A DNA stretch of 62,581 bases from Rickettsiales bacterium (GCA_031263095.1 JAISGI010000036.1:1-62581); one strand, 5' to 3'. Positions 4,593 through 56,988 are shown, numbered from the stretch's first letter. Notes: generated from the letters alone by a model not told the origin. Translations and numbers: made by a program.

Positions 4593-4599
4593 CGACCCG

Positions 4600-5664: not shown

Positions 5665-5676
5665 AAATCAAAGCTG

Positions 5677-5754
5677 AAAAAAGGCCAGGGTTCCCCCGGC
5701 CTTTTTTCTCCTACTCCCAATTGAAAATATCGCGAAGCGAGATTTTCAATTGAG
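5677..5754. repeat. bipartite hairpin element, copy E1 (terminator hairpin plus CAATTGAAAA palindrome)
   Basis: The element consists of three parts. First is the hairpin A6-GGCCAGGG-ttc-CCCCGGCC-T6. Second is the linker CTCCTACTCC. Third is the hairpin CAATTGAAAAT-N13-ATTTTCAATTG. The right arm encodes the last codons and stop (CTC AAT TGA) of the minus-strand gene that ends at 5746. Confidence 0.75.
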
Positions 5755-6398
5755 CCTATATATCGAGTACGTAATCTGCTTCGCCGGGTCGTACATTACA
5801 TCCGTTTGAGCAACACCCGGAGTCGTGGTCTTGTCCCAAGTCCAAAATTTATAAACCGCATAGCCGGCAGAGGAGGTGCTAAGCACAATCTCGGCATTGC
5901 TCCCGGTGCCAGTCCATTCGAGGCCGTACGCTATGATAGAGCCGCTGCTTGTAAAAAAGTTGCTCCCGTCGCCTGTCCAGCCAAGCGAATATGCGAATTC
6001 CCGGTCGAAAATGGCCACGCGCGAAACCCTCTGGTTCTGCGCTCCAATCGCAAGGTCGAAACGATAGATTCCAAGGCCAAGCACGCCTCTGCCAAGCACG
6101 GTGCCAAAATTTCCGGCCGCACTGGCGACAAGCTGCCAGCGGCTGACGGCCGGCGTCCCGATACAGGACGAAACCTCGCCAGCTGAGATACTCGGACTGC
6201 CAAGCTTTGGTGCCAGGAATTGGCATGCCTCGGACACGGGCACGGTCGCCCCCTCAGGGCATAGCTCCGGCGTAAAACACGCCGAACAGGTATAATAGTT
6301 TGATGAGTTAGAGTTGTTGGCAGATAGTAGAAGAAGTGCGAATGCTAGGTATTTAGCCTTTTGCCCCCCCCCGTACACTTTTTGTTCATATATGTCAT
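5746..6398 (-). CDS. family-A small secreted Cys-containing protein, copy A1; phase-variable and out of frame with its ATG at the assembled G9
   Basis: ATG ACA TAT ATG AAC AAA AAG TGT ACG-G9 reads MTYMNKKCTGGGKRLNT-stop. The long ORF (..QKAKYLAFALLLLSANNSNSSNYYTCSAC.. to ..IYRLN) joins that ATG only at G10 or G7. A GTG at 6378 is in frame but sits far from the SD. Confidence 0.7.
6364..6372 (-). repeat. poly-G tract (G9 on the coding strand) in the 5' codons of A1
   Basis: C9 counted directly on the + strand. Confidence 0.95.
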
Positions 6399-6446
6399 TG
6401 TCGTCTTTCTCCTTTGGTTAGACTTAGACATGATACAACAAAAAGC

Positions 6447-8744: not shown

Positions 8745-9164
8745 TTATTCATATTTAATTACATAATTCAAGGTTGCCGCCGGCTGCTTGTCCGCGAACG
8801 CGCCGCGCATGTCCGGAGTGCGCTCACCGACAATCGCACGAAGTGCGTTGTACCGCGCGTCCTTTGGAATCTCGGCCCCGTCGCACCAAAGATAGCCCGA
8901 GGGCAATCGCGATGCCGACCATACCGAAACCATACCGACCGGTAATGAGGAAGAGCTTCCCGCGGACATTGTACCGCCGCTTGCCGTACCGCTTGCGTCG
9001 GCCGATTGCTTCTTCGAGCTTGCCGCCCGCTTGGACTTCTTGGCCGCGCGCACGGATTTTTTCGAAGAGCTGGCCCGCGCCGACTTTTTCTTCGCCGCCA
9101 TAGCCTCGTCCGCATTGAACATCGTCAAAAGGGCGAGCACAAGAACCGTCGGAAATATCCTCAT
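8745..9164 (-). CDS. small secreted protein: Lys/Ala/Ser-rich basic spacer plus a phage tail-collar-like domain
   Basis: It starts with the signal peptide MRIFPTVLVLALL and a basic spacer (AKKKSARASSSKKSVRAAKKSKRAASSKK). The C-terminal segment VGMVSVWSASRLPSGYLWCDGAEIPKDARYNALRAIVGERTPDMRGAF fits the tail-collar pattern (W..P.GWL.CDG...Y..L...G...PD.RG). Confidence 0.55.
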   Translation of the reverse strand: MRIFPTVLVLALLTMFNADEAMAAKKKSARASSSKKSVRAAKKSKRAASSKKQSADASGTASGGTMSAGSSSSLPVGMVSVWSASRLPSGYLWCDGAEIPKDARYNALRAIVGERTPDMRGAFADKQPAATLNYVIKYE

Positions 9165-9232
9165 TTTTCCCATCCATAACCTTGGAGGCAATCATACCCT
9201 CGAACTTTCGCATTCGCAAGGAAAATATTTAA

Positions 9233-12030: not shown

Positions 12031-12057
12031 GCCAAAGTCTAACAAAAGGAGAAGACT

Positions 12058-12673
12058 ATGAACAAAAATCGTACGGGGGGGGGCAAATAAGTATTTAGCT
12101 ACTGCGCTTCTCCTGATTTCCGCCAACCACGCAAACTCCACCAATTATTATACATGTACAAGCTGCGGCGAGAACCGCCTGTTCACACTGGCCGAGGCGA
12201 CAAAATGCCTTGGCGCCGACACCTCCGGCAAATGGGAAAAGATTGTCGAGGCGGAGAACGACCTGGCAAACTCCGGCAAATACAACCGGACAGGAACTCT
12301 CCCGGCGGGAATTTACCGGCTCGAGTCATACAACCGACATTACGGCCTCGGCTCGGCCACGATACAGATTTCCGGCACGAAATACTATGGCATAAACAAC
12401 TCCATTCATCAGGATACGGCAAGGATAGACATAATGAATTCCGCGGTCGCAACCGGAAACGATAGACCGGAGCATAGCGCTTTCAACTGCTCGGTGGATA
12501 TTCCGGCATATTACACTGACGGCCATTGCAACGACGCAGGCATAGCCGAGGCCGACCTTGCCAAACACAATATAAACATAGATTGGAACACTTGGCGCCA
12601 AGTACCCGGCATAACTGCCGCCAATACCGAGACCTGCCTCGGCTGCGCCGCGATTTATAGGTGGAAAGAATAA
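12058..12673 (+). CDS. family-A small secreted Cys-containing protein, copy A2; phase-variable, OFF at G9
   Basis: ATG AAC AAA AAT CGT ACG-G9 reads MNKNRTGGGK-stop. At G8 or G11 it reads MNKNRTGGANKYLATALLLISANHANSTNYYTCTSC... through to ...CAAIYRWKE. The downstream frame is open from the tract to 12673, and track ORF 12434..12673 is its tail. Confidence 0.75.
12075..12083 (+). repeat. poly-G tract G9 in the 5' codons of A2
   Basis: Counted directly. Confidence 0.95.
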
Positions 12674-12760: not shown

Positions 12761-13304
12761 ATGTTATATATGAACAAAAAGTGTACGGGGGGGGGCAAAT
12801 AAGTATCTGGCTTTAGCGCTTCTCCTAATATCGACTAACTCTCAATCTTCAAATTATTATACTTGTACCAATTGCCTAGTGCCCGAGCTGTGCGCCACAG
12901 GAGCTACGGCCGACTTCGCCAAGTATGATAAAGCGCTGAGCAGGGACGAAGCCGCCGCCGCATTCGGCACTCCGGCCAAGACGCGCTGGCAACTCGTCGC
13001 AAGCGGCAACGTCGATTCCCAACCCTATTCTATATCCTCATCCGGGGTGTATAGGATAACTGAGCGATGGTCCACCGGATTCCAGCCAAACGAATATCGC
13101 GATTCGTTCGCTTTCGCGCTCTCTTCCTCCGACGGTCAAGTAAAAATGGAGGGATGCCCACAAGTGAATCAAGGCAACGCACTTATTAGCCTCTGCAACG
13201 GCCAAGGCTCGCAAGTGCCGGGGATTTCAGACCAAGACATCGACGCCGAACTCCCACCATTTTCAGGAAGCGGATACAAATGGCAGCTATACAGGTTGCA
13301 ATAA
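12761..13304 (+). CDS. family-A small secreted Cys-containing protein, copy A3; phase-variable, OFF at G9
   Basis: ATG TTA TAT ATG AAC AAA AAG TGT ACG-G9 reads ...CTGGGK-stop. At G8 it reads ..TGGANKYLALALLLISTNSQSSNYYTCTNCLVPELCATG... through to YKWQLYRLQ, which is track ORF 12879..13304. Confidence 0.75.
12787..12795 (+). repeat. poly-G tract G9 in the 5' codons of A3
   Basis: Counted directly. Confidence 0.95.
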
Positions 13305-13360: not shown

Positions 13361-13373
13361 TATATAAAAACCG

Positions 13374-13456
13374 AAAAACTCCGACGGCATGTACGGCGGA
13401 GTTTTTCTCATTCTTCCAATTGAAAAAGACGGACTACGCGAAGTATTTTTTAGTTG
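13374..13456. repeat. bipartite hairpin element, copy E2 (second hairpin degenerate)
   Basis: The first hairpin is AAAAACTCCG..CGGAGTTTTT and the linker is CTCATTCTTC. The second hairpin is CAATTGAAAAA-N17-ATTTTTTAGTTG. It overlaps the stop codon of the NUDIX gene. Confidence 0.6.
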
Positions 13457-15819: not shown

Positions 15820-16443
15820 TTAGAATGCATAGCGCAAGCCGACCTCCGCTACGCTCTTCCTGATCTTCATGTCGTCGGCGCCGGACTGCGAGGCGCTTCC
15901 CTTGGTGTCGAGGAATTTGTATGCTATATCGACGTTCAAGTTCTCAGATACGTCGAAGGCAAGCCCGGCCATTACGCTCCACGCGAACTTGGCTCCGTGA
16001 GCCACTTCGTCGCTGGCTTCAAACACTACGTTCCCGCTCGCATCATCGGTTTCCGTGACGTCGAGCTTCATATATGTGTCGACCAAGCCAAGCCCTATGC
16101 CTATGAACGGAGTGAAATTGAGCCCTGTCGGAATGTCCCAGTACCCGTTCACCATATAGGACAGATAGTGTGCCTTGAACTTGTCCTGCTCGTTCGTCGT
16201 CCCGTCGTCGTACGAGTAGGTATTGCTGGTGGTGAAGCCGTACCCAAACTCGAACTCGCTCCTGAACTCGCCCGTCTTGACGCCATAGGCAATGCTTATG
16301 CCAAGGTCATCAAGCCTGATGGGCTGGTCGCCATACCTGGCCCAATTATAAGGCAGGCGCGCGCCGACATACTGTTTCACTTCGGCCGAAACCGCAGTGG
16401 AAAAGAACGCCGCCGCAAACGCTATAAGGGATAGTTTCTTCAT
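15820..16443 (-). CDS. outer-membrane beta-barrel protein (OmpA-barrel / opacity-like family)
   Basis: Signal peptide MKKLSLIAFAAAFFSTAVSA, alternating beta-strand pattern, C-terminal ..GLRYAF. Confidence 0.75.
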   Translation of the reverse strand: MKKLSLIAFAAAFFSTAVSAEVKQYVGARLPYNWARYGDQPIRLDDLGISIAYGVKTGEFRSEFEFGYGFTTSNTYSYDDGTTNEQDKFKAHYLSYMVNGYWDIPTGLNFTPFIGIGLGLVDTYMKLDVTETDDASGNVVFEASDEVAHGAKFAWSVMAGLAFDVSENLNVDIAYKFLDTKGSASQSGADDMKIRKSVAEVGLRYAF

Positions 16444-16564
16444 CTTCCTTCCTTTCTTTTTTGTGTCCAAACGCCGTCGGCGCCGGAATAAATTGTAGCG
16501 TTTCAAGGCCGCATTGCCAAGTAGAACATAAGCCTAGGACGCACCGCCTACCACAAAAATCAAA

Positions 16565-16644
16565 GCGAAGAAATCCCGCGGTCTCCGTGGGATTTCTTCT
16601 CACTATTCCAATTGAAAAAGCCGCTTGCGGATTTTTCAATTGAG
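16565..16644. repeat. bipartite hairpin element, copy E3
   Basis: The first hairpin is GAAGAAATCCCGCGG-tct-CCGTGGGATTTCTTC and the linker is TCACTATTC. The second hairpin is CAATTGAAAAA-gccgcttgcgg-ATTTTTCAATTG. Its right arm carries the A4 codons CTC AAT TGA. It is roughly 80 percent identical by eye to E4, in direct orientation. Confidence 0.8.
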
Positions 16645-17212
16645 TTTATACAGTGCTCCATACGCCGCATTCCCAACCTGAAAGTCCGCCTTGCTTATAT
16701 TGGGAACGTTGATTATATCGGAAGTTGCACGCGCCTGCACGAGCATGTTATAGCCTCCTTTGCCCGTTTCGTATATCCAGGAATTGTATCCATAACCAGT
16801 AGAATCTTGGAAATAGTGCAATATGAGAGAATTGACCGGATTTTCAAGCACGACTCCCTCTATATGGAAATTGGAACCGTCTATTGTCGAGACAAGCATG
16901 TATATCCCGGGCGCGATGTCCGGAATGTCCATTCTGCCAAGCGCGCCTATATCCTTTTTATTCTCGCGAACTTTCGTCCATCTGGAAAAGGCCGGACTGC
17001 CAAGACAATCCGTGAACTCCTCAATGCTAAGCACGGCATTGAGCTTGCAGTCCGCGCTGCGTCCAGCATTGACACAAGCCCCCGGCACGGCGCAAGCTGT
17101 GCAGGTATAATAATTAGATGATTGAGAGTTGTTGGCAGATAGTAGGAGAAGCGTTGCGAGTACTATTACTCTATTTGCCCCCCCCCGTACGCTTTTTGTT
17201 CATATATGTCAT
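16636..17212 (-). CDS. family-A small secreted Cys-containing protein, copy A4; phase-variable, OFF at G9
   Basis: ATG ACA TAT ATG AAC AAA AAG CGT ACG-G9 reads ..RTGGGK-stop. At G8 it reads ..TGGANRVIVLATLLLLSANNSQSSNYYTCTACAVPGAC... through to GALYKLN, which is track ORF 16636..17088. Confidence 0.75.
17178..17186 (-). repeat. poly-G tract (G9 on the coding strand) in the 5' codons of A4
   Basis: C9 counted on the + strand. Confidence 0.95.
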
Positions 17213-17308
17213 TATTGTCTTTCTCCTTTGGTTAGACTTATATATTATACCGCATTATAAAGATAAAAGAAAGTAAAAATTCAGATTTTGCCCAGCCAAA
17301 CATAAAAA

Positions 17309-17387
17309 GCGAAAAAATCCCGCGGTCTCCGTGGGATTTTTTCACATATTTCCAATCGAAAAAGAGCTTAGCGACTTTTCGATTGAG
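17309..17387. repeat. bipartite hairpin element, copy E4
   Basis: The first hairpin is GAAAAAATCCCGCGG-tct-CCGTGGGATTTTTTC and the linker is ACATATTTC. The second hairpin is CAATCGAAAAAG-N9-CTTTTCGATTG. It starts directly after the rlpA stop codon. Confidence 0.8.
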
Positions 17388-18584
17388 CTAGTTCACATTC
17401 CACTTGAGCTCGTTGCCATCCTTTAGGATAACACGCGAACCATCTATACCCTTGGCACCGATTGCTTTCTGGACACGCTCGGCCTCGGTCTTGGACGGAA
17501 ATTCGCCAAGCCGGACTTTGTAGAGCGTGTTGCCGTTCTGCACCGCCTTGAATATCTTGACCGGCGCCACACCGACAAGCTTGTTCTTCATCGCCTCGGC
17601 CTTTTCATAGCTGGAGTACGCCGCAACCTGCACGAAATATTCCCCCTCCTCCGGCGAACGCCGAGCAGCGGATGCAGGAGCCACAACGGCCGCAACCTCC
17701 TCTATTACAGGTGTCGGAGCTGGCACTGGAGCGACCGGAGTCGCGGTAAAGTTGTCATGCCCGACATGGCTCTCGCGTGTATAGTTCGGCTGCATCTCGA
17801 CCACGCCGCCATCGGACGCAGGCAGAGGTCTGACCTCCGCAGCAGCTGGGTCGGGCACCGCGCTCTCGGTTCTGGCAAGCGTTATGTCCGGCGAGTATAT
17901 GTCGGTGTTGCCACCCGCAAGGGCAAGCTCTTTCAGGTTCCGGCTCTGCTCGGGCAGTATCTCGACCTTCACGCGCGCCGAGCCCTTCTGCTTGACGCCG
18001 AGCACATCCGCCGCAGCGGACGACAGGTCGATGATTCGGTCGCGCGCAAACGGCCCGCGGTCGTTGATTTTGATAGTAAGCGAAGCACCGTTCTCAAGGT
18101 TCGTCACACGCACAAGCGAGGGCAAGGGAAGCGTCCTGTGCGCAGCAGTGTATTTTGTGGTATCGAAGACTTCGCCATTGCTGGTTGACTTGCCGTGGAA
18201 GTCCGGCCCGTACCACGAGGCGATTCCAACCTCGCTGTACTCGTAGTTCTCATGCGGATAATAGGGAACTCCGTCGATAAGGTAAGGATTACCGATTTTA
18301 TAAGTCCCGCCCGAGGCAAGCGGAGCCGCAGGAGCCGCGGGTGCTGCAGGAACGGGTGCCTGGGTCGGCGCAGATTCTACTGGCTCGGCCGCCTGTGGAA
18401 CCGAGCTGAACTCATCCTCGGTCGGCTGGGCGAAGTTGTCGTCATAGCTCTGCATATCGTTGTAAGAGGGCTCGGCCGCAGCGGGCGCGGGTTTGGTCGC
18501 CGAACGTATCGGCACTTCGCTTCCACGGTATTCGGCGCACGCGGCAAGGACGAACAAAGCTATAAACCAAAGATTCTTTTTCAT
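17388..18584 (-). CDS. rlpA: septal ring lytic transglycosylase RlpA (DPBB plus SPOR domains)
   Basis: Lipobox-like signal MKKNLWFIALFVLAAC, DPBB segment GIASWYGPDFHGKSTSNGEVFD..AAHRTLPLPS..V.NL.NG, and a C-terminal SPOR domain (YFVQVAAYSSYEKAEAMKNKL). Confidence 0.88.
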   Translation of the reverse strand: MKKNLWFIALFVLAACAEYRGSEVPIRSATKPAPAAAEPSYNDMQSYDDNFAQPTEDEFSSVPQAAEPVESAPTQAPVPAAPAAPAAPLASGGTYKIGNPYLIDGVPYYPHENYEYSEVGIASWYGPDFHGKSTSNGEVFDTTKYTAAHRTLPLPSLVRVTNLENGASLTIKINDRGPFARDRIIDLSSAAADVLGVKQKGSARVKVEILPEQSRNLKELALAGGNTDIYSPDITLARTESAVPDPAAAEVRPLPASDGGVVEMQPNYTRESHVGHDNFTATPVAPVPAPTPVIEEVAAVVAPASAARRSPEEGEYFVQVAAYSSYEKAEAMKNKLVGVAPVKIFKAVQNGNTLYKVRLGEFPSKTEAERVQKAIGAKGIDGSRVILKDGNELKWNVN

Positions 18585-19163: not shown

Positions 19164-19189
19164 TTGACAAATCATGGGGGGGGTAGAAT
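19164..19189 (+). promoter_or_regulatory. candidate promoter with a G8 tract inside the spacer
   Basis: TTGACA (19164-19169), then aatcat-G8 (a 14-nt spacer), then TAGAAT (19184-19189). It lies about 55 nt upstream of the SD and ATG of the gene starting at 19243. Confidence 0.45.
19176..19183 (+). repeat. poly-G tract G8, intergenic, inside the promoter spacer
   Basis: Counted directly. Confidence 0.95.
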
Positions 19190-19242: not shown

Positions 19243-19671
19243 ATGTATAATAAGATAATGCTTGCGGCGGTTGCTGCCATAGCGGTTTCAAGCGGAGCAT
19301 GGGCGGTAAATAAATCAGGCAGGCCGACTAATGCGCCAGCCAAAACCGTAACCGTCAAGTACGGTATAGTAGTAAGCAAGGAATTCGACTTCGGTGCGAA
19401 AGGTTCATGCAATAATGCCACATTCGGCGACCCGGCCAGAGGCGTAAATAAGGAATGCTACAGCGGCCTGGGTGAAAAAATAGCCAGCGAGGGCAAAGGT
19501 TTCACTCGCCCGGACTGCTGCACGGCAGTATTATATGGCAAGCTGACGTCGAAATCCGTACCGATGGGAAGTGCCTGCAACAACGCGACCTTCGGCGACC
19601 CAGCCAAAGGATATAAGAAAGCTTGCTACATTGACGGCCGCAAAGTCGCCGATGAAGGTGGCGAAATCTAG
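19243..19671 (+). CDS. small secreted Cys-rich protein with an internal duplication
   Basis: Signal peptide MLAAVAAIAVSSGAWA. The motif [KG]GSxCNNATFGDPA[RK]G..K.CY occurs twice. Confidence 0.65.
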   Translation: MYNKIMLAAVAAIAVSSGAWAVNKSGRPTNAPAKTVTVKYGIVVSKEFDFGAKGSCNNATFGDPARGVNKECYSGLGEKIASEGKGFTRPDCCTAVLYGKLTSKSVPMGSACNNATFGDPAKGYKKACYIDGRKVADEGGEI

Positions 19672-19684
19672 TAATATACAGACC

Positions 19685-19765
19685 AAAAAAATCCCGGGAT
19701 TTCCCCGGGATTTTTTACACATATTCCACCAATCAAAAGTACCCCAAAGGGGCAACTTTTGATTG
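19685..19765. repeat. bipartite hairpin element, copy E6
   Basis: The first hairpin is AAAAAAATCCCGGG-attt-CCCCGGGATTTTTT and the linker is ACACATATTCCAC. The second hairpin is CAATCAAAAGT-N14-ACTTTTGATTG. Confidence 0.75.
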
Positions 19766-19771
19766 AATTTT

Positions 19772-20473
19772 CTAGAACTGCACTCCGTATTTAACGCCGA
19801 ACACATCGTCGTTATCATCGTTCCCGATGTCGGTCTTGTAATAGACGCTCGCGGCCGAGTTCGCGCTGATTACGAGGTTGCCCTGCACCACGAACCAGAA
19901 GCTGTCGTCAATTCCCTTCTGCGTGTGCTGCTCGTCGTCAAGGGCAAGATAGCCCGAAAACTTGGGCGTGAATTGGTACAGGCCCTCAAGCACGAAATGG
20001 ATTATCGAATCATGATACCCCGACGCTGACAAGCGGTCGAACGTAATCTTTCCGTCATAGGTGTACTTGTCTTTCACCTTGCCGCCACGTACGCCGATTC
20101 CCCAGACGCTCGTATCTCCGGTAGCCGAAACGTCGTCGCTTATGGCGCCGCCTACATGGGCAAGTACATCGAGAAGTTGCCCGCCGCGGTTCAAGGCACT
20201 ATAGTTCGCGCCCAAGTCCCAGTTGCCTACTCCGTCGTCGCGACCCGAGTTCTTGCTCCAGCGGTCGAGGTCGAATCCGAACGACATCGCAAACTTGTTG
20301 GAGAATCCGTATCCGAATGTCTCGAGCGCCTGCAGCCTGTCGTCCGATTTGTTCAGATCCGTTATGGAATAGAACTTGCCTTCCGACGGACGGTAGAACG
20401 GATTTTCGATTCCTACGCCCGCATTGGCGGAAACGGAAGCCAGCAAAAGCCCCGCTGTAAGAAGTTTATTCAT
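19772..20473 (-). CDS. outer-membrane beta-barrel protein
   Basis: Signal peptide MNKLLTAGLLLASVSANA, beta-strand periodicity, C-terminal ..VKYGVQF. Confidence 0.7.
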   Translation of the reverse strand: MNKLLTAGLLLASVSANAGVGIENPFYRPSEGKFYSITDLNKSDDRLQALETFGYGFSNKFAMSFGFDLDRWSKNSGRDDGVGNWDLGANYSALNRGGQLLDVLAHVGGAISDDVSATGDTSVWGIGVRGGKVKDKYTYDGKITFDRLSASGYHDSIIHFVLEGLYQFTPKFSGYLALDDEQHTQKGIDDSFWFVVQGNLVISANSAASVYYKTDIGNDDNDDVFGVKYGVQF

Positions 20474-22173: not shown

Positions 22174-22186
22174 TTTTATCCAAAAA

Positions 22187-22206
22187 GGCCGGGGTTGGCC
22201 CCGGCC
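22187..22206 (-). terminator. terminator of the OMP gene that ends at 22231
   Basis: GGCCGGGG-ttgg-CCCCGGCC, with a T-run on the minus strand. Confidence 0.6.
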
Positions 22207-22230
22207 TCTCCATTGAATCGTCTCGATTCG

Positions 22231-22746
22231 TTAAAAATATACGCGGCCCTTGACAAGGAACGAATGTATTTTTATGTCCAGGTCGCCCTCGAACGAGGCG
22301 GGGATATAACGGTACTCGACTCCACCGGCAAGCGGCATCATGGGAATGTCCAGATCAAGCCCGATCATGTATTGCATGCTCGTGTTCGACTCTACACCCG
22401 AGGGTTTCAGGTTGGTCGCACCCAAGCCTAGATAGGGCTTTACGACCGGTATAAGCGGAAGTCCGACATAGGCGTTCACGCCGAACCCGGTAATCTTGTC
22501 CGCGTCCTTGAACCCGTATTGTATGTACTCGACCTCGGCCCGTACGGGGAATAGGGGCACGGGAAGCGCGAAGCCGCCGTATATCGACCAAGCCGCGCCG
22601 GTGTCGAGATCTGAGCTGGGCAGGCCGGACGGATCGACTTTTCCGCTCGACGAGCCGACGCTGAATCCCATATAGCTCATTCCCGCCGACGCTCCGGTCG
22701 AGGCGAGCACAGCCATCACGGCAAGCGTTGCGAATTTCTTGTTCAT
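22231..22746 (-). CDS. small outer-membrane beta-barrel protein
   Basis: Signal peptide MNKKFATLAVMAVLASTGASA, C-terminal ..VKGRVYF. Confidence 0.7.
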   Translation of the reverse strand: MNKKFATLAVMAVLASTGASAGMSYMGFSVGSSSGKVDPSGLPSSDLDTGAAWSIYGGFALPVPLFPVRAEVEYIQYGFKDADKITGFGVNAYVGLPLIPVVKPYLGLGATNLKPSGVESNTSMQYMIGLDLDIPMMPLAGGVEYRYIPASFEGDLDIKIHSFLVKGRVYF

Positions 22747-28173: not shown

Positions 28174-28258
28174 GTGCGAAACCTGCGGCGTGTACGTAGG
28201 TTTCGCACACCTATTCCCCACTCGAAAAAGCGAGCACAGCGCTGATTTTTCGATTGAG
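28174..28258. repeat. bipartite hairpin element, copy E7, inserted between lolE and lolD
   Basis: The first hairpin is GTGCGAAACCT-N13-AGGTTTCGCAC, with no flanking T-run. The linker is ACCTATTCCCCAC. The second hairpin is TCGAAAAA-N16-TTTTTCGA, followed by TTGAG. Confidence 0.75.
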
Positions 28259-28964: not shown

Positions 28965-29043
28965 TTTCAATTGAGTTATTATGCTTGATTTTCAAGCGAT
29001 AAATGGATACAATACCCAAAAATCCTACTAATGAGGTGCCAAA

Positions 29044-31200: not shown

Positions 31201-32329
31201 CTATTGTATCGCCCTGACGGCATTTACGCACTCGTCGATTTCCTTGAAAAGCTTGTCCACCTCAAGCATGCCGACAACGCCCGCCGCGCCCGAGGCAAGT
31301 CCGCCGACCGCCGCCACGCCCGAGGTTATCATTCCCCCGACGCCCGAGCCAAGCTTGCCTATGCCCTTTGCTTCCTGATGGGCGAGCTTGCTCTTGACCT
31401 CGGCATCGGCCAAGGCATAGTTCTTGCCGCGATTATAATCCGCGTCTTGCAGATACTTCGCATACGCGTCATCGTCCCAAGTCCACGAAGCCATGTCCAC
31501 CGCCAGTCTCGAGTTGTCGTTGTAAGTAGCTATCAGGTTGCCCAAGGTCGAGCCATAAAGCACCGGCTTGTCGCTCGTGCAGGTGGTGGAAGCAATGGGC
31601 GCGAACTTGACGGAGGTCTCGGTAAAGGTTATGTCATCGGACGAGCAGCCCTCTATGCTGTCGTGCGCGTCGAGTATCTGGGCGGCAAGCTCGACTTGGT
31701 CGTCAAGAAGACTGTCCATATCCCTGTCTATGTCCGCTTTACTTTTGTAGTTGGCCATTACCGCGCCCTTCATTGTTTCGGGAAGCGAACCGAGCGCCGC
31801 GCCCATATCGGCGTTGTTGCCCTCTTTTATGAAAGCGTCCTCTCTGGCAATCGAGGCTTTCGCATGCTCCTCTTTCGCCTTTTTAAGATCGCTCGAGTTT
31901 TTAATCTGCCCGGCAAGGTTCAGGCCGCCGCCGATAAGGGACGCCGCACCGCCGCCTATTGAAAAGCCAAGCGCAACCTGAAGCGTCTGCTTGTCGCGTA
32001 TTTTCCCGCACGCGGTTTTCGCTTTGTTGATAAGGGCCCAAGTCTCCGCGCCCGCACCCACGCTTGCAACGGCTATTCCGACATCCCCGGCCGGAGCTTC
32101 GTAGGTCGAAGCCACAGGCTCCGCCGCAACGCTTTCCGCCGTGGGAACAGCCGCAGGATTGTTGTGTATAGCGCCGCCGCCGGCTGCAACCGCGCCACTG
32201 GAGCGCCTGGAAACAGGAGCCTTTGGCCGGTTGTCCCGCCTCTGCGCTCCGGCTTCACCGCCGATTGCCGAGATTAAAACTAAAAGGGAAAGACTATACG
32301 CCCCCCCCCGTGCACAGTTTGTTCGTCAT
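31201..32329 (-). CDS. family-B secreted glycine-zipper / coiled-coil protein, copy B1; phase-variable, OFF at G9
   Basis: ATG ACG AAC AAA CTG TGC ACG-G9 reads MTNKLCTGGGV-stop. At G8 it reads MTNKLCTGGAYSLSLLVLISAIGGEAGAQRR... and joins track ORF 31201..32115. It is paralogous to the gene at 39461..40588: both have the ACGKI motif, Gly-zipper segments, and a C-terminal ..EIDEC..A.. tail. Confidence 0.7.
32301..32309 (-). repeat. poly-G tract (G9 on the coding strand) in the 5' codons of B1
   Basis: C9 counted on the + strand. Confidence 0.95.
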
Positions 32330-35808: not shown

Positions 35809-35876
35809 GTTCTTCCTCCAATAAAAATCGGAAAGTATTTTATCTTTGTCAAACATGTTCTTCCTCCAATAAAAAA
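35781..35876. repeat. 2 x 48-bp tandem duplication covering the pheS SD, ATG and first 9 codons
   Basis: Units 35781-35828 and 35829-35876 are identical at 47 of 48 positions. Confidence 0.95.
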
Positions 35877-35927
35877 GGGAGCGTGCGCCCCCTTTATTAT
35901 AATATAAATCTGCATCAGGCGCAAGTG

Positions 35928-39460: not shown

Positions 39461-40588
39461 CTATAGGGCCTTCGCCGCTTTCTGACACTCTTCTATCTCT
39501 TTCTCAAGCTGCGAGAATTGGGCAATGCCTATGCCTCCGGTGATGGCCGATGCCAACCCGCCAGCAGTCGCAAGGCCAGCGGTTATAATGCCGCCCGTCC
39601 CGGTCGCAAGCTTGCCAAGACCCTTTGGCTCTGGCCTGCCGCCGGCCTTTATTATGCCGTCTTTTTTGGCCAGCTCGGACAGTCTTTCGACAACACCCTG
39701 TTTTAATGTATCGAACTGTACTTTGCTTTCGACGATATCATCCTCCTTGAAATTTTGGAAGAAACCTTCGGGTAGCGTACCCGTAAGCTCAGAATTCGAA
39801 CTATTGTACACGCATGAGGCGGAGTACTTGACCCGTATCGAAGCTGTTACAAGTATGCCATATGTTAAAGTCTCGTCATAACTATCCAAAGCTTCTCTTA
39901 GTGATTTATAAACTTTACCGCAATCCATCTCATTACCAACAATTCCTCTGATCTTATTGGCTTCCTCATTGACATCCATTCTAATATCGCGGACAGAGGC
40001 AAGACACTCATCGATAGTAATCTCCTCGCAATTATTGGCTATGTAGTAGGAGAAAAATCTGATGTCGTAGTAATCATAATCACTATCATCATAGAAATAC
40101 CTATTTATATAGTATGCCAAGTATTCGGCGTCAAATCCAAGCCCCTCGGCGTCGCCTCCCTCCTCCTCGGCCTTCTTCTCGTCAAACCTGTTCTTCACCT
40201 GCCCGACGAAGTTGAGGCCGCCCGCAAGGGTCGAAACGCCGCCGCCCGCGACCCCGCCAATCATAAGGCCTTTAATTTGCCTAAGGTCGATTTTGCCGCA
40301 CGCGGATTTTGCCTCTCCGGAAGATTGCTGAGCTTGGGCAAGCTTGGCCTCCGAGTCCGACAGGCTTCGCCTTAGCCGGGCGATTTCGGCGTCCCTGTCT
40401 ATCGCCTGCTGCTGAAGCCTTAGGATTTCGCCGGAGTCGGCCGAGGGCTGGACTATTGGTTGGCTTGCGCCGGAGCTCCCGGGCGACCCGCGCGCGCGTT
40501 GCGCTCTTCCGGCCGACGCGCCTGCGGATACAAGGGTGAAGATAGCCAGAAAGACCAGGCTATCCGCCAATCTTCCACCCCCCCCCAT
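39461..40588 (-). CDS. family-B secreted glycine-zipper / coiled-coil protein, copy B2; the poly-G tract includes the start codon and is in frame at G9
   Basis: AT-G9-T reads ATG GGG GGG GGT GGA.., giving MGGGGRLADSLVFLAIFTLVSAGASA (a signal peptide). A weak SD (AGGA) lies 4 nt upstream. The upstream ATG at 40605 would join only at G10. Confidence 0.7.
   Translation of the reverse strand: MGGGGRLADSLVFLAIFTLVSAGASAGRAQRARGSPGSSGASQPIVQPSADSGEILRLQQQAIDRDAEIARLRRSLSDSEAKLAQAQQSSGEAKSACGKIDLRQIKGLMIGGVAGGGVSTLAGGLNFVGQVKNRFDEKKAEEEGGDAEGLGFDAEYLAYYINRYFYDDSDYDYYDIRFFSYYIANNCEEITIDECLASVRDIRMDVNEEANKIRGIVGNEMDCGKVYKSLREALDSYDETLTYGILVTASIRVKYSASCVYNSSNSELTGTLPEGFFQNFKEDDIVESKVQFDTLKQGVVERLSELAKKDGIIKAGGRPEPKGLGKLATGTGGIITAGLATAGGLASAITGGIGIAQFSQLEKEIEECQKAAKAL
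40578..40586 (-). repeat. poly-G tract (G9 on the coding strand) overlapping the B2 start codon
   Basis: C9 counted on the + strand. Confidence 0.95.
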
Positions 40589-45173: not shown

Positions 45174-46183
45174 TCGGCTATTTTAGCATTTTTCCGAAGC
45201 GATTGCAACTTCATGATTTGCTCCCACGCAGCGGCAAGCGCAAAGGACAATAGCACGCAGTACACGGCGTAATGCCGCTTGCCAATCGTGAAATGGCCGA
45301 GTATGGCAAACGCCGCCGCTTGGAACACATACGCGCCATAGCAGTATTTCGATACATGCCCAACCCACGAAAATCTGTTCAGCCATGAAAATATCGCCCC
45401 CGCCGACGTCGCCATGCCAAGCAAAAGAATGGAGAATACGGCGACAAGCTGTATGTCCAAACTGCCTGCGCTTTTCGAGAAAATCAACGCGTTGAAGATA
45501 AAGCCAAGACCAAGGACGCTCGCCGCTGTCCATACCCAATATCCGCCCCGCGCGGGTTTGATGTGCACCGCTATTTCGCGCAGGATTATGCCAAGTCCCA
45601 TGCCGGCGACGGCGCGCGCAATCGACCTGGGAAAGGCATTGAACATCACGCCGGCATGCACGCCCAAGCTGCCGAAATTCGCTTCTAACGCCGTATAGCA
45701 AAGCCAAGCAACAACGGCCGTAAGGAACAGAAGTTTCCTCCGTTCGAAATGCAAAAGCGCGAAATAGAACAGCATACTTGTCCAGAAATACGCACACACA
45801 AACCACGCGAAGAAATTCACGCTACGGCCAGGCAGTCCTACGTTCACAAGCATAAGCAGGCTCGATATGATGTCTTTGTTCCAATCCTGGCCAAGCGCCA
45901 GCAAAAGGATTATGCTTGCCGCATAGGCTGGCCACAGCCGCCAGAACCGCCGCAACGCGAACTCCTTGAACGTAAGCGGCCGCCGGATAAACCCGTCGTA
46001 CAGCAGGTATCCGCCTATTATAAAGAAAAAATCTACTATTATATCGGTCGGGCGCAGGTATCGGGCTTCCCACCACCTGTCGAATACCCCGTGCCTAAGT
46101 ATTATAAGTATTGTGAACAGGATCCGGAGGAATTCTATAGACCATATTGCCCCCCCCTTATGTTTATCCTGTAATTTCAACAT
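45170..46183 (-). CDS. acyltransferase family 3 (OafA/YrhL-like) membrane protein; G8 tract in codons 9-12, in frame as assembled
   Basis: It starts MLKLQDKHKGGAIWSIEFLRILFTILIILRHG and has many transmembrane segments. The tract reads AAG GGG GGG GCA. Confidence 0.8.
   Translation of the reverse strand: MLKLQDKHKGGAIWSIEFLRILFTILIILRHGVFDRWWEARYLRPTDIIVDFFFIIGGYLLYDGFIRRPLTFKEFALRRFWRLWPAYAASIILLLALGQDWNKDIISSLLMLVNVGLPGRSVNFFAWFVCAYFWTSMLFYFALLHFERRKLLFLTAVVAWLCYTALEANFGSLGVHAGVMFNAFPRSIARAVAGMGLGIILREIAVHIKPARGGYWVWTAASVLGLGFIFNALIFSKSAGSLDIQLVAVFSILLLGMATSAGAIFSWLNRFSWVGHVSKYCYGAYVFQAAAFAILGHFTIGKRHYAVYCVLLSFALAAAWEQIMKLQSLRKNAKIAE
46150..46157 (-). repeat. poly-G tract (G8 on the coding strand) in the acyltransferase 5' codons
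   Basis: C8 counted on the + strand. Confidence 0.95.
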
Positions 46184-53314: not shown

Positions 53315-53372
53315 ACGGGCAAGGATACCCCAACCCTTGCAACATTGCAATATTTATGATATAATCAGGCCC

Positions 53373-53945
53373 ATGACAAGAAAAGACATACGCGGCGCCA
53401 GCATGGTCGAGCTTTTGCTCTACATCGGCATAATAATCACCGTGACGCTCGCCGGCGTCAAGTTCCAAAGCCAGGCCATAGAAAAGACACGCCAGGCCGA
53501 GCTCCAGATGACCCTTTCCGACGCCGAGAAAAAGATAAACGAGCTCTACCTCGGCCGCCCCTGGGGTACGATGACCGAGGGGGAGCGGGCAAAGTACCTG
53601 CTCGAGCGCGGCGTAAGCCTCACCTCGCCGTGGAAATCCGGCATGCAGGACTATGGCACGGGCGCGAACGGCAGGAAGCTCCTCGGCAACATGACCGTCT
53701 CGACAAGCGACGGGATAAGCAGCAATAGCGCGATTCGCATGCCCCACTTCGCCGTGCACGTCAAGAACCTGCCACGGCCAAGCTGCATCTGGGTCGCCAC
53801 TTCGCAATCCTCCGTCGCCGCCTGCGTTTCGGTCAACAACGCGGTAGCGGTGTCCGAAACCGACTGCATAAGGGAAATCGGCACCGCCACTTCCCGCTGC
53901 GACAGGGACAATAACGAGGTTATAGTGTTCTTCAGGAAAGAGTGA
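53373..53945 (+). CDS. type IV pilin-like (class III signal peptide) protein
   Basis: MTRKDIRG|ASMVELLLYIGIIITVTLAGV has Gly at -1, Glu at +5 and a hydrophobic helix. Two Cys pairs are present in the C-terminal domain. Confidence 0.65.
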   Translation: MTRKDIRGASMVELLLYIGIIITVTLAGVKFQSQAIEKTRQAELQMTLSDAEKKINELYLGRPWGTMTEGERAKYLLERGVSLTSPWKSGMQDYGTGANGRKLLGNMTVSTSDGISSNSAIRMPHFAVHVKNLPRPSCIWVATSQSSVAACVSVNNAVAVSETDCIREIGTATSRCDRDNNEVIVFFRKE

Positions 53946-53946
53946 T

Positions 53947-54574
53947 ATGCGAACTTCAAAACTACCCCCCCCCATTCGTCGCCGCGATTCTCTGCCTGAT
54001 CTCCTTGGTCGCCCGCGCAAGCGTCAAGCCGCAGGCGACGTTTTCCCCGGCCGAGCTTGCTAGGTCGATAACCGGCTCGCGCGCCCAGGAAGTAAAGATT
54101 GACGAACAGCTGAAAGCCCAGGTCGCGGCCGTCAGACAGGCCTCCGAGAATTTCAAGGCCGCCCAACTCGCCTACGCCGAAAAACTTAAATCCATAAAGA
54201 ATTCCATAGCCGAGCTGAAAAACAAGAAACGGGGTATCGGCAAGGATAGGAAAAAACTGAACCGCGAGCTTTCAAGAACAGGCCAGAACATCAAACGCAG
54301 ATACGGCGCCCTGAACCGCACGGGCGGGAAATCTTCGGCGGAATATACAGCCGTCAAGGCCGAGGTCGAACGCTACAACCAGGCGGTAAAACAGATAAAC
54401 GAGCAAAAACGCAACATCGCGGCCCTCAAGTCCGCCGAGCAGCGTATCAAGCTCTTCGACAAGGCCGCCGCAAGACAATCCTCGCACTCCGACCGCTCCG
54501 CCGACAAAATGGCCGACCGGCTCGCCACTGTCCAAGACGCGGTCGATGGCCTTCGCGGCGATATAGGAATATGA
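53947..54574 (+). CDS. secreted basic coiled-coil protein; phase-variable, with C9 out of frame with the SD-linked ATG
   Basis: SD AGGAAAGAG lies upstream of ATG 53947. At C9 it reads MRTSKLPPPIRRRDS... and stops after 38 codons. At C8 it reads MRTSKLPPPFVAAILCLISLVARA, a signal peptide joined to the 200-aa ORF. The track start GTG 53942 overlaps the pilin stop codon. Confidence 0.6.
53965..53973 (+). repeat. poly-C tract C9 in the 5' codons
   Basis: Counted directly. Confidence 0.95.
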
Positions 54575-55764: not shown

Positions 55765-55797
55765 AAAAAAATCCCGGGTTCTTCCCGGGATTTTTTT
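55765..55797. terminator. bidirectional terminator overlapping the LysM gene stop codon
   Basis: AAAAAAATCCCGGG-ttct-TCCCGGGATTTTTTT. Confidence 0.75.
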
Positions 55798-56905
55798 ATT
55801 TCTTCTTCGACTCTTTGACGGCCTTCGCGCCCGCGCGCCCGTTCTTCTTCAAATCGCCGTACTTCGCGCTGGATTTGGAGGGCAGAGTGAACGCCTGCCG
55901 TTCATAGATTTTATCCGGGTCGGCAATCTGCGACCGGTTCGCCTCGAATATTACCACATAGTCGGCGCCGCGCCCGTATTCCTTGAGCGCGATGTTCCAC
56001 AGGTTGTCCCCGCGCTTGATTACGACCGCGGTGTTCTTCTCGTCTATGAAAGCCGGCGCAAACTTGTACACTACGCGCTTCGCAACCTTGCCGTTCGCGC
56101 CAAGCATGTCCGCACGCACGGAATATTTCTTCCCTGCCTCAAGCTTGTACTCCTTGTCGACCGACCAAGCGCCGGTTTCGTCGGAGTCGGCCGAGGCCAA
56201 CAACACGCCCTCTATATAAAGGTTGACCTTCGAGTTTTTAAGCACGAAACCCGAAGCTTTGAAAGCGCCGTCCTCGGCATAGTCGATTTTCTCGACCCGA
56301 AGCGCGCCGATGTTCTGGCCCTTGGGGGCTTTGATAACGCGCGAAGCATTCTTGCCGCCCATCACTACGCCAACCTCTTCGCCCGGTTTTTTGGAAACGT
56401 GTAGGAGCGCGCTCTGCTTGCTGCGGATTTTTGTGCCGTCCGCCGCGATTACGAAAAGCGAAAGTTTGCGGTCGCCTACCGGCAGGGCTTTCTTTGGCAG
56501 GAACACCCATTGCCCGTTCTCGTCCGCAGTTTCGGTACCAATCTCGCGCTCGTTATCAAGGATGTGAACCACGTCCTTCGGCGCCGCGCGGCCCGAGACT
56601 ACGATTTCGCCGTTCTCCATGCGCACGACGTCGAACGACGGCGCAATTGTGTCGGGAACCGCCTTGACGGAAGAATCCGCGACATTCACTTCGTTCGGCT
56701 TGTCATTTTTAAGGATTGAGGAAACAAGAAAGCAAAGACCCGCGATTACGATAATCGCGCCAAGGGCGATTGCCACGCTCTTCTTGTCCTTGCAGAAACG
56801 GCCGAAACGGTCGCGCTTTATCGCCTCCGGAAGGCGGTTCGGCTGCGTCGCTTGTGCACGGTTAGGCTCGGTCGCGGGCGAAAGCGTGGGCTCTTTTTTT
56901 TCCAT
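55796..56905 (-). CDS. LysM-domain peptidoglycan-binding membrane protein
   Basis: SD AAAGGAG, a single transmembrane segment (VAIALGAIIVIAGLCFLV), Ig-like repeats, and a C-terminal LysM domain (IKRGDNLWNIALKEYG...IADPDKIY..Q.FTLP). Confidence 0.8.
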   Translation of the reverse strand: MEKKEPTLSPATEPNRAQATQPNRLPEAIKRDRFGRFCKDKKSVAIALGAIIVIAGLCFLVSSILKNDKPNEVNVADSSVKAVPDTIAPSFDVVRMENGEIVVSGRAAPKDVVHILDNEREIGTETADENGQWVFLPKKALPVGDRKLSLFVIAADGTKIRSKQSALLHVSKKPGEEVGVVMGGKNASRVIKAPKGQNIGALRVEKIDYAEDGAFKASGFVLKNSKVNLYIEGVLLASADSDETGAWSVDKEYKLEAGKKYSVRADMLGANGKVAKRVVYKFAPAFIDEKNTAVVIKRGDNLWNIALKEYGRGADYVVIFEANRSQIADPDKIYERQAFTLPSKSSAKYGDLKKNGRAGAKAVKESKKK

Positions 56906-56988
56906 ATCAGGACTCCTTTTAAGTTCTTTGATAGCCAAAAATATCCATTTTTTATACAAATGTCAATATATTTTTGTCGAAAATAGAG

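Follow-up and report, generated by a model that had tools for sequence, protein, structure and literature searches.

A two-hairpin repeat dispersed among gene ends in an uncultured alphaproteobacterial lineage

The window that we analyzed, by which we mean the whole stretch of DNA under study, is a contig of 62,581 bp with a G+C content of 55% and a negative GC skew in 29 of its 31 2-kb segments. By Pfam assignment, its genes include housekeeping functions of a Gram-negative bacterium, among them clpX, cmk, gap, rluD, skp, pheST, rplT, fabI, dnaX, ybaB, recR and lpxB as well as secF, ksgA, ftsH, lolE/lolD and efp. In a search of 5.8 billion proteins, the best identity for the M16 peptidase of the window was at most 52%, with the best named match coming from a metagenome-assembled genome (MAG) labeled 'Rickettsiales bacterium' and the next from other Alphaproteobacteria; the nearest relatives of the organism stand at ~50% protein identity. 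The only other trace of it in the collections searched consists of two near-identical short Logan contigs (2.0 and 2.7 kb) from SRR14710921. The tetranucleotide GATC is strongly depleted in the window (37 sites in 62.6 kb) and GGATCC occurs only three times, while AAGCTT is abundant (62 sites). At 35810-35905, a 48-bp tandem duplication spans the ribosome-binding site and first codons of pheS (TTTTTATTGGAGGAAGAACATGTTTGACAAAGATAAAATACTTTCCGA twice), such that MFDKDKILS is repeated at the N terminus. We also observed a small secreted protein with a match to a phage tail-collar domain (8745-9191, minus strand).

By its sequence, a module of ~80-95 bases that is carried by six intergenic sites in this window is a real lineage-specific dispersed repeat (Table 1). 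The copy count is six per 62.6 kb, the window being the sole portion of the genome present in the collections searched. Each copy, numbered c1 to c6, contains two hairpins, H1 and H2, and all six share a single orientation, as a sequence-only reading of this DNA had proposed. Along the minus strand, the order is (stop)-ACT-CAATYGAAAA-variable GC-rich tip-TTTTCRATTG-GGAAUAKGWG-GAAAAAA, continuing in the 3' direction with a variable GC stem-loop, TTTTTTC and GCTTTGATTTTT. In five of the copies, this corresponds to a stop codon, H2, a purine-rich linker (GGAAUAGUGAG), an intrinsic terminator and a U-run. H2 is built on the basal stem CAATYGAAAA/TTTTCRATTG and carries a variable GC-rich tip, with a total stem length of 10-17 bp; H1 is a hairpin with an A-run, a GC stem and a T-run, and 8-13 nt of linker connect the two. 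The linker motif CA[CT]ATT[CT]C given by the sequence-only reading fits exactly only in c4 and c5, and the consensus is better written loosely as ~yTAyTyCC on the plus strand or GGAAUAKGWG on the minus strand.

The position of the module relative to stop codons is a consistent feature of five copies. As had been claimed, the stop codon of the adjoining minus-strand gene lies at H2: three copies (c1, c2 and c3) have it within the arm, and in c4 and c5 it precedes the arm by 2 and 6 nt, respectively. In c1 and c3, the stop is contained in the 5' arm of H2 as CTC AAT TGA, and in c2 it appears as AAC TAA in the decayed arm; the overlap between element and open reading frame extends over at most the last two codons plus the stop (c1-c3). 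The sixth copy is an exception to this rule, since it adjoins no minus-strand gene and lies between lolE and lolD. The neighboring genes are convergent at c1, c2 and c5 and are tandem minus-strand genes at c3 and c4, and c6 sits inside an operon. We considered whether the TAG stops found beside several copies represent an enrichment and rejected the idea because TAG is the commonest stop in the window, ending 19 of 52 genes compared with 18 for TAA and 15 for TGA.

Table 1. Copies of the two-hairpin repeat, their relatives and look-alikes, and other features named in the text. Positions are in the window unless a contig is named; fold z refers to the minus-strand RNA and bits to covariance model R1.
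Feature	Position	Strand	H1	Linker	H2	Context	Fold z	Bits
c1	5676-5754	-	5676-5708 (GAAAAAAGGCCAGGG/CCCCGGCCTTTTTTC)	5709-5717	5718-5752 + AG	para1 TGA stop 5746-5748 inside H2 arm; convergent cmk ends 5664	-6.8	50.5
c2	13373-13456	-	13373-13407	13408-13416	13417-13456	NUDIX gene TAA stop 13450-13452 inside decayed arm; convergent para2 ends 13304	-0.9	41
c3	16567-16644	-	16567-16599	16600-16608	16609-16642 + AG	para3 TGA stop 16636-16638 inside H2 arm; downstream, U-run and then promoter of OMP gene 15820..16506	-4.9	59.5
c4	17311-17387	-	17311-17343	17344-17352	17353-17385 (CAATCG/CGATTG) + AG	rlpA-like gene TAG stop 17388-17390; para3 promoter comes next	-4.9	48.1
c5	19685-19765	-	19685-19716	19717-19729	19730-19765 (CAATCAAAAG/CTTTTGATTG)	OMP-like gene TAG stop 19772-19774; convergent gene 19243..19671 ends 13 nt before H1	-6.3	46.7
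c6	28174-28258		28174-28208		28219-28256	lolE-lolD operon (+); lolE ends 28146; H2 ends 22 nt before lolD ATG (28281)	-4.2	44.4
Possible relic	28965-28975	+				right-arm 11-mer TTTCAATTGAG directly after lolD stop		
H1-only relative	55765-55797	-	bidirectional terminator, 31/35 identical to c5 H1			directly after stop of 55796..56959		
Look-alike, not a sequence member	22182-22229	-	terminator 22182-22206	AATGGAGA	different small hairpin 22215-22229 (GAATCGTCTCGATTC)	after stop of OMP gene 22231..22746	-5.8	
para1-4	5746-6440 (-), 12050-12673 (+), 12761-13304 (+), 16636-17250 (-)					four small paralogous genes		
G/C tracts	6364-6372, 12075-12083, 12787-12795, 17178-17186, 19176-19183, 32301-32309, 40578-40586, 46150-46157, 53965-53973							
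Clostridia repeat (Ga0123355)	L156 9900-9990, L156 11097-11200, L121 4760-4862, L131 1100-1213							

In predicted minus-strand RNA, five of the six copies (c1, c3, c4, c5 and c6) fold into two clean hairpins with a short single-stranded linker between them, with z scores from -4.2 to -6.8. The remaining copy, c2, had been read as intact, but its H2 is degenerate, with the right arm TTTTTTAGTTG and an unpaired tip. The H2 of c5 is a doubly compensated variant, and this copy is identical in Logan contig L119. In c6, the left arm of H2 has one mismatch (CACTCGAAAA), and H1 has a GC-extended stem with no T-run on the plus strand, on which the lol genes lie, and a weak T-run on the minus strand. 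Because GC pairs have replaced the A- and T-runs of this H1, the lol transcript would not be expected to terminate there. A further half copy had been proposed at 28967-28980. The 11-mer on which it is based is present, directly after the lolD stop codon, but the covariance model described below does not detect it and it may have arisen by chance.

The family stands out clearly from the background of the window. The exact arm CAATYGAAAA occurs eight times on the two strands, compared with 0.58 ± 0.79 expected from dinucleotide-preserving shuffles (n = 100), none of which reached eight. A scan with a covariance model had been suggested alongside the sequence-only reading, and we built one, R1, from H2 plus 7-9 nt of flank and ran it over the whole window with filters off. 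With R1, the six copies score 41-59.5 bits and all lie on the minus strand; on the opposite strand, the same palindromes give weaker scores (9-27 bits). Beyond these, the whole window yields a single match, at 8.8 bits with E = 9.3.

In agreement with the sequence-only reading, the copies of H2 have a basal stem sequence in common but unrelated tips, and the same pattern of conserved bases and unrelated tips is seen in both hairpins. This arrangement fits either sequence-specific recognition or hypermutable hairpin tips. The further claim that the stem sequence is conserved rather than just the pairing holds in part: the base is indeed conserved, but it is not strictly fixed, as compensatory changes keep the pairing in four of the six copies. 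The stem variants in the window are CAATTG/CAATTG in c1 and c3, CAATCG/CGATTG in c4 and c6, and the c5 pair listed in Table 1. In a ten-copy alignment that combines the six window copies with four from a Clostridia look-alike family, the 11-bp basal stem is 97.3% paired, and in five of the 11 pairs both partners have changed; in slid controls, where the partner column is shifted by 1-3 positions, pairing falls to 27-56%. H1 behaves similarly between c3 and c4, which are identical at 31 of 33 positions and differ by a single compensated pair. Caution is needed in reading such evidence, given that templated repair in DNA palindromes can produce paired changes without selection. The asymmetry of G-U pairs between the two strands gave no consistent answer as to which strand folds.

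The compensated arms bear directly on one alternative, in which CAATTGAAAA is a DNA uptake sequence co-opted as inverted pairs in terminator stems, as in Neisseria and Pasteurellaceae. Here, as in DUS/USS terminators (PMC1852404), a conserved 10-mer forms an inverted pair around a variable loop, and the window has other traits reminiscent of Neisseria and Haemophilus, including many poly-G tracts, an Opa-like OMP and a PilS-like pilin match. Yet all eight exact arms in 62.6 kb lie inside hairpins. Single copies, whether within genes or outside them, are not above chance, with 21 matches at one mismatch or fewer against ~12 expected and the excess accounted for by the arms of the element. Arm density is at least several-fold lower than that of DUS/USS, for which about one copy per kb would be looked for, and the variant arms in four of six copies are compensated on the partner arm, which indicates that the pairing has been kept and not the word. 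We consider an uptake sequence very improbable. The PilS-like match itself (53337-53945, plus strand) adjoins ksgA and is followed by a C9 tract.

The six units are best understood as homologous copies of one dispersed repeat rather than as six unrelated terminators, which upholds their original grouping as a family. Their conserved blocks appear in the same order (ACT-CAATYGAAAA, TTTTCRATTG-GAAUAG, GAAAAAA...TTTTTTC and GCTTTGATTTTT) beside genes that are mutually unrelated, namely para1, a NUDIX gene, para3, an rlpA-like gene (rlpA/SPOR), an OMP-like gene and lolD. Since these blocks take in positions that do not pair, including the ACT foot, the linker and the GCTTTGATTTTT tail, homology is indicated and convergence is unlikely. 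All six copies are clustered within 5.7-28.3 kb of the window, and local duplication or gene conversion alone would be enough to explain this clustering.

A stronger version of that idea holds that the copies are ordinary tandem bidirectional terminators made alike by local duplication of the para genes and by gene conversion within a 23-kb region, with templated quasi-palindrome mutation mimicking compensation. Beyond the clustering itself, it draws on the observations that c1 and c3 follow paralogous genes and share the extra flank GCTTTGATTTTT, that both H1 and H2 have the A-run, GC-stem and T-run layout of a terminator, and that similar sequence families exist among other terminators of the window. 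It accounts poorly for c2, c4, c5 and c6, which adjoin unrelated genes and yet keep ~30 ordered positions including the non-pairing linker and the ACT/AG flank, and for the several window terminators that have no H2 at all. Bidirectional intrinsic terminators do share with our element the GC stem of H1 with its A-run and T-run sides, and three copies lie between convergent genes; such terminators, however, need no conserved second hairpin, linker or flank, and the other three copies are not between convergent genes. On this evidence, we regard local homogenization of ordinary terminators as unlikely.

We also observed that the two hairpins are modular. A terminator of the c5 H1 type occurs on its own at 55765-55797 with no H2, which indicates that H1 and H2 are separable modules. 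Other window terminators without H2 include those at 4599, 15773, 19125 and 35874. In a look-alike behind an OMP gene, a terminator related to the H1 of c1 is preceded by a different small hairpin; this unit folds well and gives no covariance-model match. By comparison with known repeats, separable hairpins of this kind amount to BIME-like mosaic logic and not to a single rigid element.

By sequence criteria, the H1 of c1-c5 qualifies as an intrinsic terminator on the minus strand, with stems of 11-15 pairs and tails of the TTTTTTC or TTTGATTTTT type. In all five of these copies, H1 is surrounded by both an A-run and a T-run, and because the former precedes the stem and the latter follows it, H1 reads as a terminator on both strands. 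H2 is itself terminator-like, with an A-run, GC-tip and T-run layout. The statement in the sequence-only reading that the element is not a plain terminator was therefore too strong, H1 being by sequence a textbook bidirectional intrinsic terminator.

Taking these observations together, we give about an even chance to a reading in which the element is a lineage-specific, low-copy, dispersed gene-end repeat whose H1 serves as a bidirectional terminator and whose H2 provides stop-proximal backup and 3' protection. The mRNA would run from the stop codon into H2, then through the purine-rich single-stranded linker and into the GC-rich H1 and its U-run. Flanked as it is by an A-run and a T-run, H1 would end transcription in both directions, a requirement of the three pairs of convergent genes. 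H2, placed close to the stop codon, would serve as a second structure that backs up termination and blocks 3'-to-5' exonucleases after trimming of the U-tail. It could perhaps also modulate translation termination, because a terminating ribosome would have to melt it. The copies probably arose by module duplication and recombination into several gene ends. Two of them appear to be decaying already, in the H2 of c2 and in the terminator function of c6, which would fit a repeat that is not essential at every site.

Among known systems, the closest likeness is to the REP and BIME elements of Enterobacteriaceae and the REPINs of Pseudomonas, which are likewise short extragenic palindromes found after stop codons and between convergent genes and which form mosaics of hairpins and linkers. 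On this comparison, a REP/BIME-like mosaic repeat of two separable hairpin modules is the most likely description of the element. In E. coli, REPs have been described as combined terminators and stabilizers in 3'UTRs, and higher expression of convergent genes has been associated with them (bioRxiv 10.64898/2026.03.23.713779). The likeness has clear limits, since the window element lacks the GTAG/GTGG head, is accompanied by no RAYT gene among the window proteins scanned with Pfam and is known from only six copies in 62.6 kb. REPs do not have a canonical intrinsic terminator with a U-run such as its H1. Its two hairpins are also unrelated in sequence instead of being a single unit repeated in inverted orientation, such that only the idea of a hairpin-linker-hairpin mosaic is held in common with BIMEs. 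With respect to the position of H2, Liang and Deutscher reportedly found that REPs within ~15 nt of a stop codon lower translation via ribosome stalling and tmRNA. Another palindromic family, the Rickettsia palindromic elements (RPE), consists of palindromic units of 100-150 bp that lie in frame inside open reading frames and have a family-specific consensus.

The stop-proximal position also invites a regulatory interpretation, in which the H2 base and the GGAAUAG linker form an RNA-level module in 3'UTRs and two 5' leaders that co-regulates envelope and surface-protein genes. From its placement, the module would certainly be transcribed within five mRNAs, where it would present a single-stranded, purine-rich linker with a GGA motif between two hairpins; its stem covaries, and its neighbors are mostly secreted or outer-membrane proteins. 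However, it matches no Rfam family, c6 is in the opposite sense to its genes, the H2 of c2 is destroyed while its gene is intact, and we identified no protein as a candidate for binding it. In addition, the module is absent from ~96 kb of relatives, which argues against an ancient regulon signal. We think co-regulation through such a module doubtful, and the candidate roles for it, namely a site for a ProQ/FinO-, Hfq- or CsrA-like protein, an RNase III site or a shared sRNA target, are jointly just as doubtful. Two other functional assignments were tried and rejected: H2 as a promoter with TTGAAA as its -35 element, because the spacing to a -10 varies from 16 to more than 20 nt, and a SECIS or read-through signal formed by the UGA and its hairpin, because the reading frames downstream lack conservation.

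Several copies adjoin members of a family of four small paralogous genes, which we term para1-4. None has a Pfam match, and para1, the member that we searched, has no homologue among 5.8 billion proteins. The four have in common a near-identical promoter, leader and start (AGTCTAACCAAAGGAGAAAGAC..ATGACATATATGAACAAAAAGTGTACG-G9), a signal peptide and an NYYTC motif, with a highly diverged middle and a C terminus reading Y[RK]L[NQ]. With the tract at G9, the ATG of para1, para2 and para3 is out of frame with the long open reading frame, which would require G10 in para1 and G8 in para2 and para3; para4 looks fragmented. Together with its promoter, para3 is bracketed by direct repeats in a cassette-like arrangement at 16567-17387, with c4 upstream and c3 downstream.

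The G9 tracts of these genes are part of a larger set. In the 62.6 kb, G or C runs of 8-9 nt occur nine times, or about once per 7 kb. The seven inspected, from 6364 to 40578, lie either at the start of genes for predicted surface or secreted proteins, within ~10 codons (M.NK.C[T]GGG...), or in the spacer of a promoter (TTGACAAATCAT-G8-TAGAAT before 19243..19671). Most being in gene starts, the tracts suggest from their positions a dense set of candidate phase-variable genes. Only two such tracts occur in ~96 kb of relatives. This density of poly-G/C at gene starts is unusual for an alphaproteobacterium of 55% G+C and is more striking than the hairpin element.

Such surroundings raise the question of whether the repeat is a recombination site, with H2 as the hairpin recognized by a DNA enzyme such as an integron-like integrase, a tyrosine recombinase or a RAYT/Y1-HUH transposase, which would move gene-end modules or small-gene cassettes, and with H1 as merely a resident terminator. 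A conserved H2 base with a varying tip is the layout of attC sites and REPs. The six copies and the relic lie on one absolute strand of a contig with a predominantly negative GC skew, a bias expected for replication-tied single-strand mechanisms. The direct repeats that bracket the para3 cassette have a common H1 and different H2s, and five of the six copies abut candidate phase-variable genes. Against this stands the lack of any transposase, RAYT, integrase or recombinase among the ~60 window proteins scanned with Pfam, in which recR is the sole recombination gene. The copies also lack GTAG, RYYYAAC/GTTRRRY boxes, extrahelical bases, terminal inverted repeats and target duplications, and the strand bias derives from n = 6 with p ~0.03. 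We judge a recombination site of this type rather unlikely.

The individual signatures of mobility show no defining feature of the REP/RAYT or MITE identity that the sequence-only reading had entertained. The feet of the palindrome read ACT|CAAT and ATTG|GAA, with no GTAG/GTGG head, and the GTAG in the linker of c1 is an accidental occurrence. The two ends of the element (ACTCAATTG... and ...GCTTTGATTTTT) are not mutual inverted copies. No consistent flanking direct repeats were found, and those that might be taken as such, TATAG at c1 and CTAGA at c5, are the stop codons of neighboring genes. Empty sites were likewise not found. Integron attC sites and CALINs resemble the element in having a folded site after the cassette open reading frame, a conserved base, a variable terminal structure and one orientation, as well as in the bracketing of para3; they differ in that the stem foot CAA/TTG of our element is perfectly paired, no R''/R' boxes or extrahelical bases are present in the copies, no integrase is found, gene orientation is mixed and the neighbors are housekeeping genes. 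With the PATE elements derived from IS200/IS605, the only agreeing feature is the single-strand orientation (6/6), whereas here the two hairpins do not resemble each other, H1 differs from copy to copy and TnpA is not encoded in the window.

Outside the window, we found no further copy in ~96 kb of the nearest relatives or in plasmid, phage and viral-contig collections, and Rfam returned no window match at the gathering threshold. A scan of 185,579 species genomes for the bare palindrome gave, among the matches listed, single hits in unrelated phyla, so the palindrome alone is not diagnostic. A stricter pattern returned 33 metagenome loci. In gammaproteobacterial MAG L050, one hit has the same style of H2 and a GAGTAGTGG linker, but it was set aside as a singleton in an unrelated contig. 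L155 has ATTGGAAT, a terminator and TTTGAT at the syntenic OMP-M16 spacer; this was rejected as a family member because the match is too short to count. In this nearest relative (M16 52% identical), the OMP-to-M16 spacer (914-985; window counterpart 22174-22233) has the sequence ..GATTGGAAT..terminator..TTTGAT. It recalls both the tail of the element and the junction between H2 foot and linker and, judged by these short stretches, may be an old relic. A literature search with the sequence words of the element returned primers only.

Among these metagenome loci, one group has the same arrangement; it comes from a termite-gut-type Clostridia bin, Ga0123355 (contigs L121, L131 and L156), and combines a GC hairpin with a linker of 13-15 nt and CCAATYGAAAAC-NNN-GTTTTCRATTGAG. 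This two-hairpin repeat is present in four copies in ~28 kb. Copies lie 5 nt after the TAG stops of hisH and recA, a copy in the inverse orientation precedes the start of recA by 16 nt, such that recA is flanked by an inverted pair, and one copy follows the groEL stop at a distance of ~120 nt. The stem also exists as a compensated variant, CACTTG/CAAGTG. The copy upstream of recA is absent in a relative with an 81% identical RecA, and Rfam gave nothing for these elements at E values up to 1. In contrast to the window element, the Clostridia repeat lacks a GC tip on H2 and keeps the sequence of its H1, and its host is from another phylum. The repeat was found by searching for the H2 words themselves, and in the remaining positions its linker resembles the window copies no more than 301 unrelated pattern-matched loci do; we accordingly do not take it as an established cross-phylum homologue. 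From these comparisons, the Clostridia repeat is best regarded as an analogue and not a proven relative. A bolder form of the recombination idea would have H2 as a folded-strand site for an HUH/Y1 or tyrosine recombinase encoded elsewhere, which moves gene-end modules or whole phase-variable surface-protein cassettes with orientation fixed relative to the replication strand, and would have a related element shared with the co-resident Clostridia. We find this distinctly unlikely; if it were true, the shared element would represent cross-phylum spread of a non-autonomous hairpin element.

Two features are left unexplained by the reading as a gene-end terminator and stabilizer. The H2 base is conserved beyond the need of a purely structural role, and all six copies lie on one absolute strand, including c6, which is among plus-strand genes, something that a role at gene ends alone would not account for. 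It is these two features that leave some probability to the alternatives.

The repeat adds a clearly defined, interspersed palindromic gene-end element for a deep, uncultured alphaproteobacterial lineage that is otherwise uncharacterized, and R1 can be used to annotate the rest of the genome. Its anatomy, with a stop codon buried in a sequence-conserved hairpin followed by a purine-rich linker and a bidirectional terminator, makes it a convenient natural system in which to ask how structures near the stop codon and terminators in tandem influence the expression of convergent genes. If the H2 base proves to be a protein recognition site, the element would also bear on the shuffling of small surface-protein genes in this organism.
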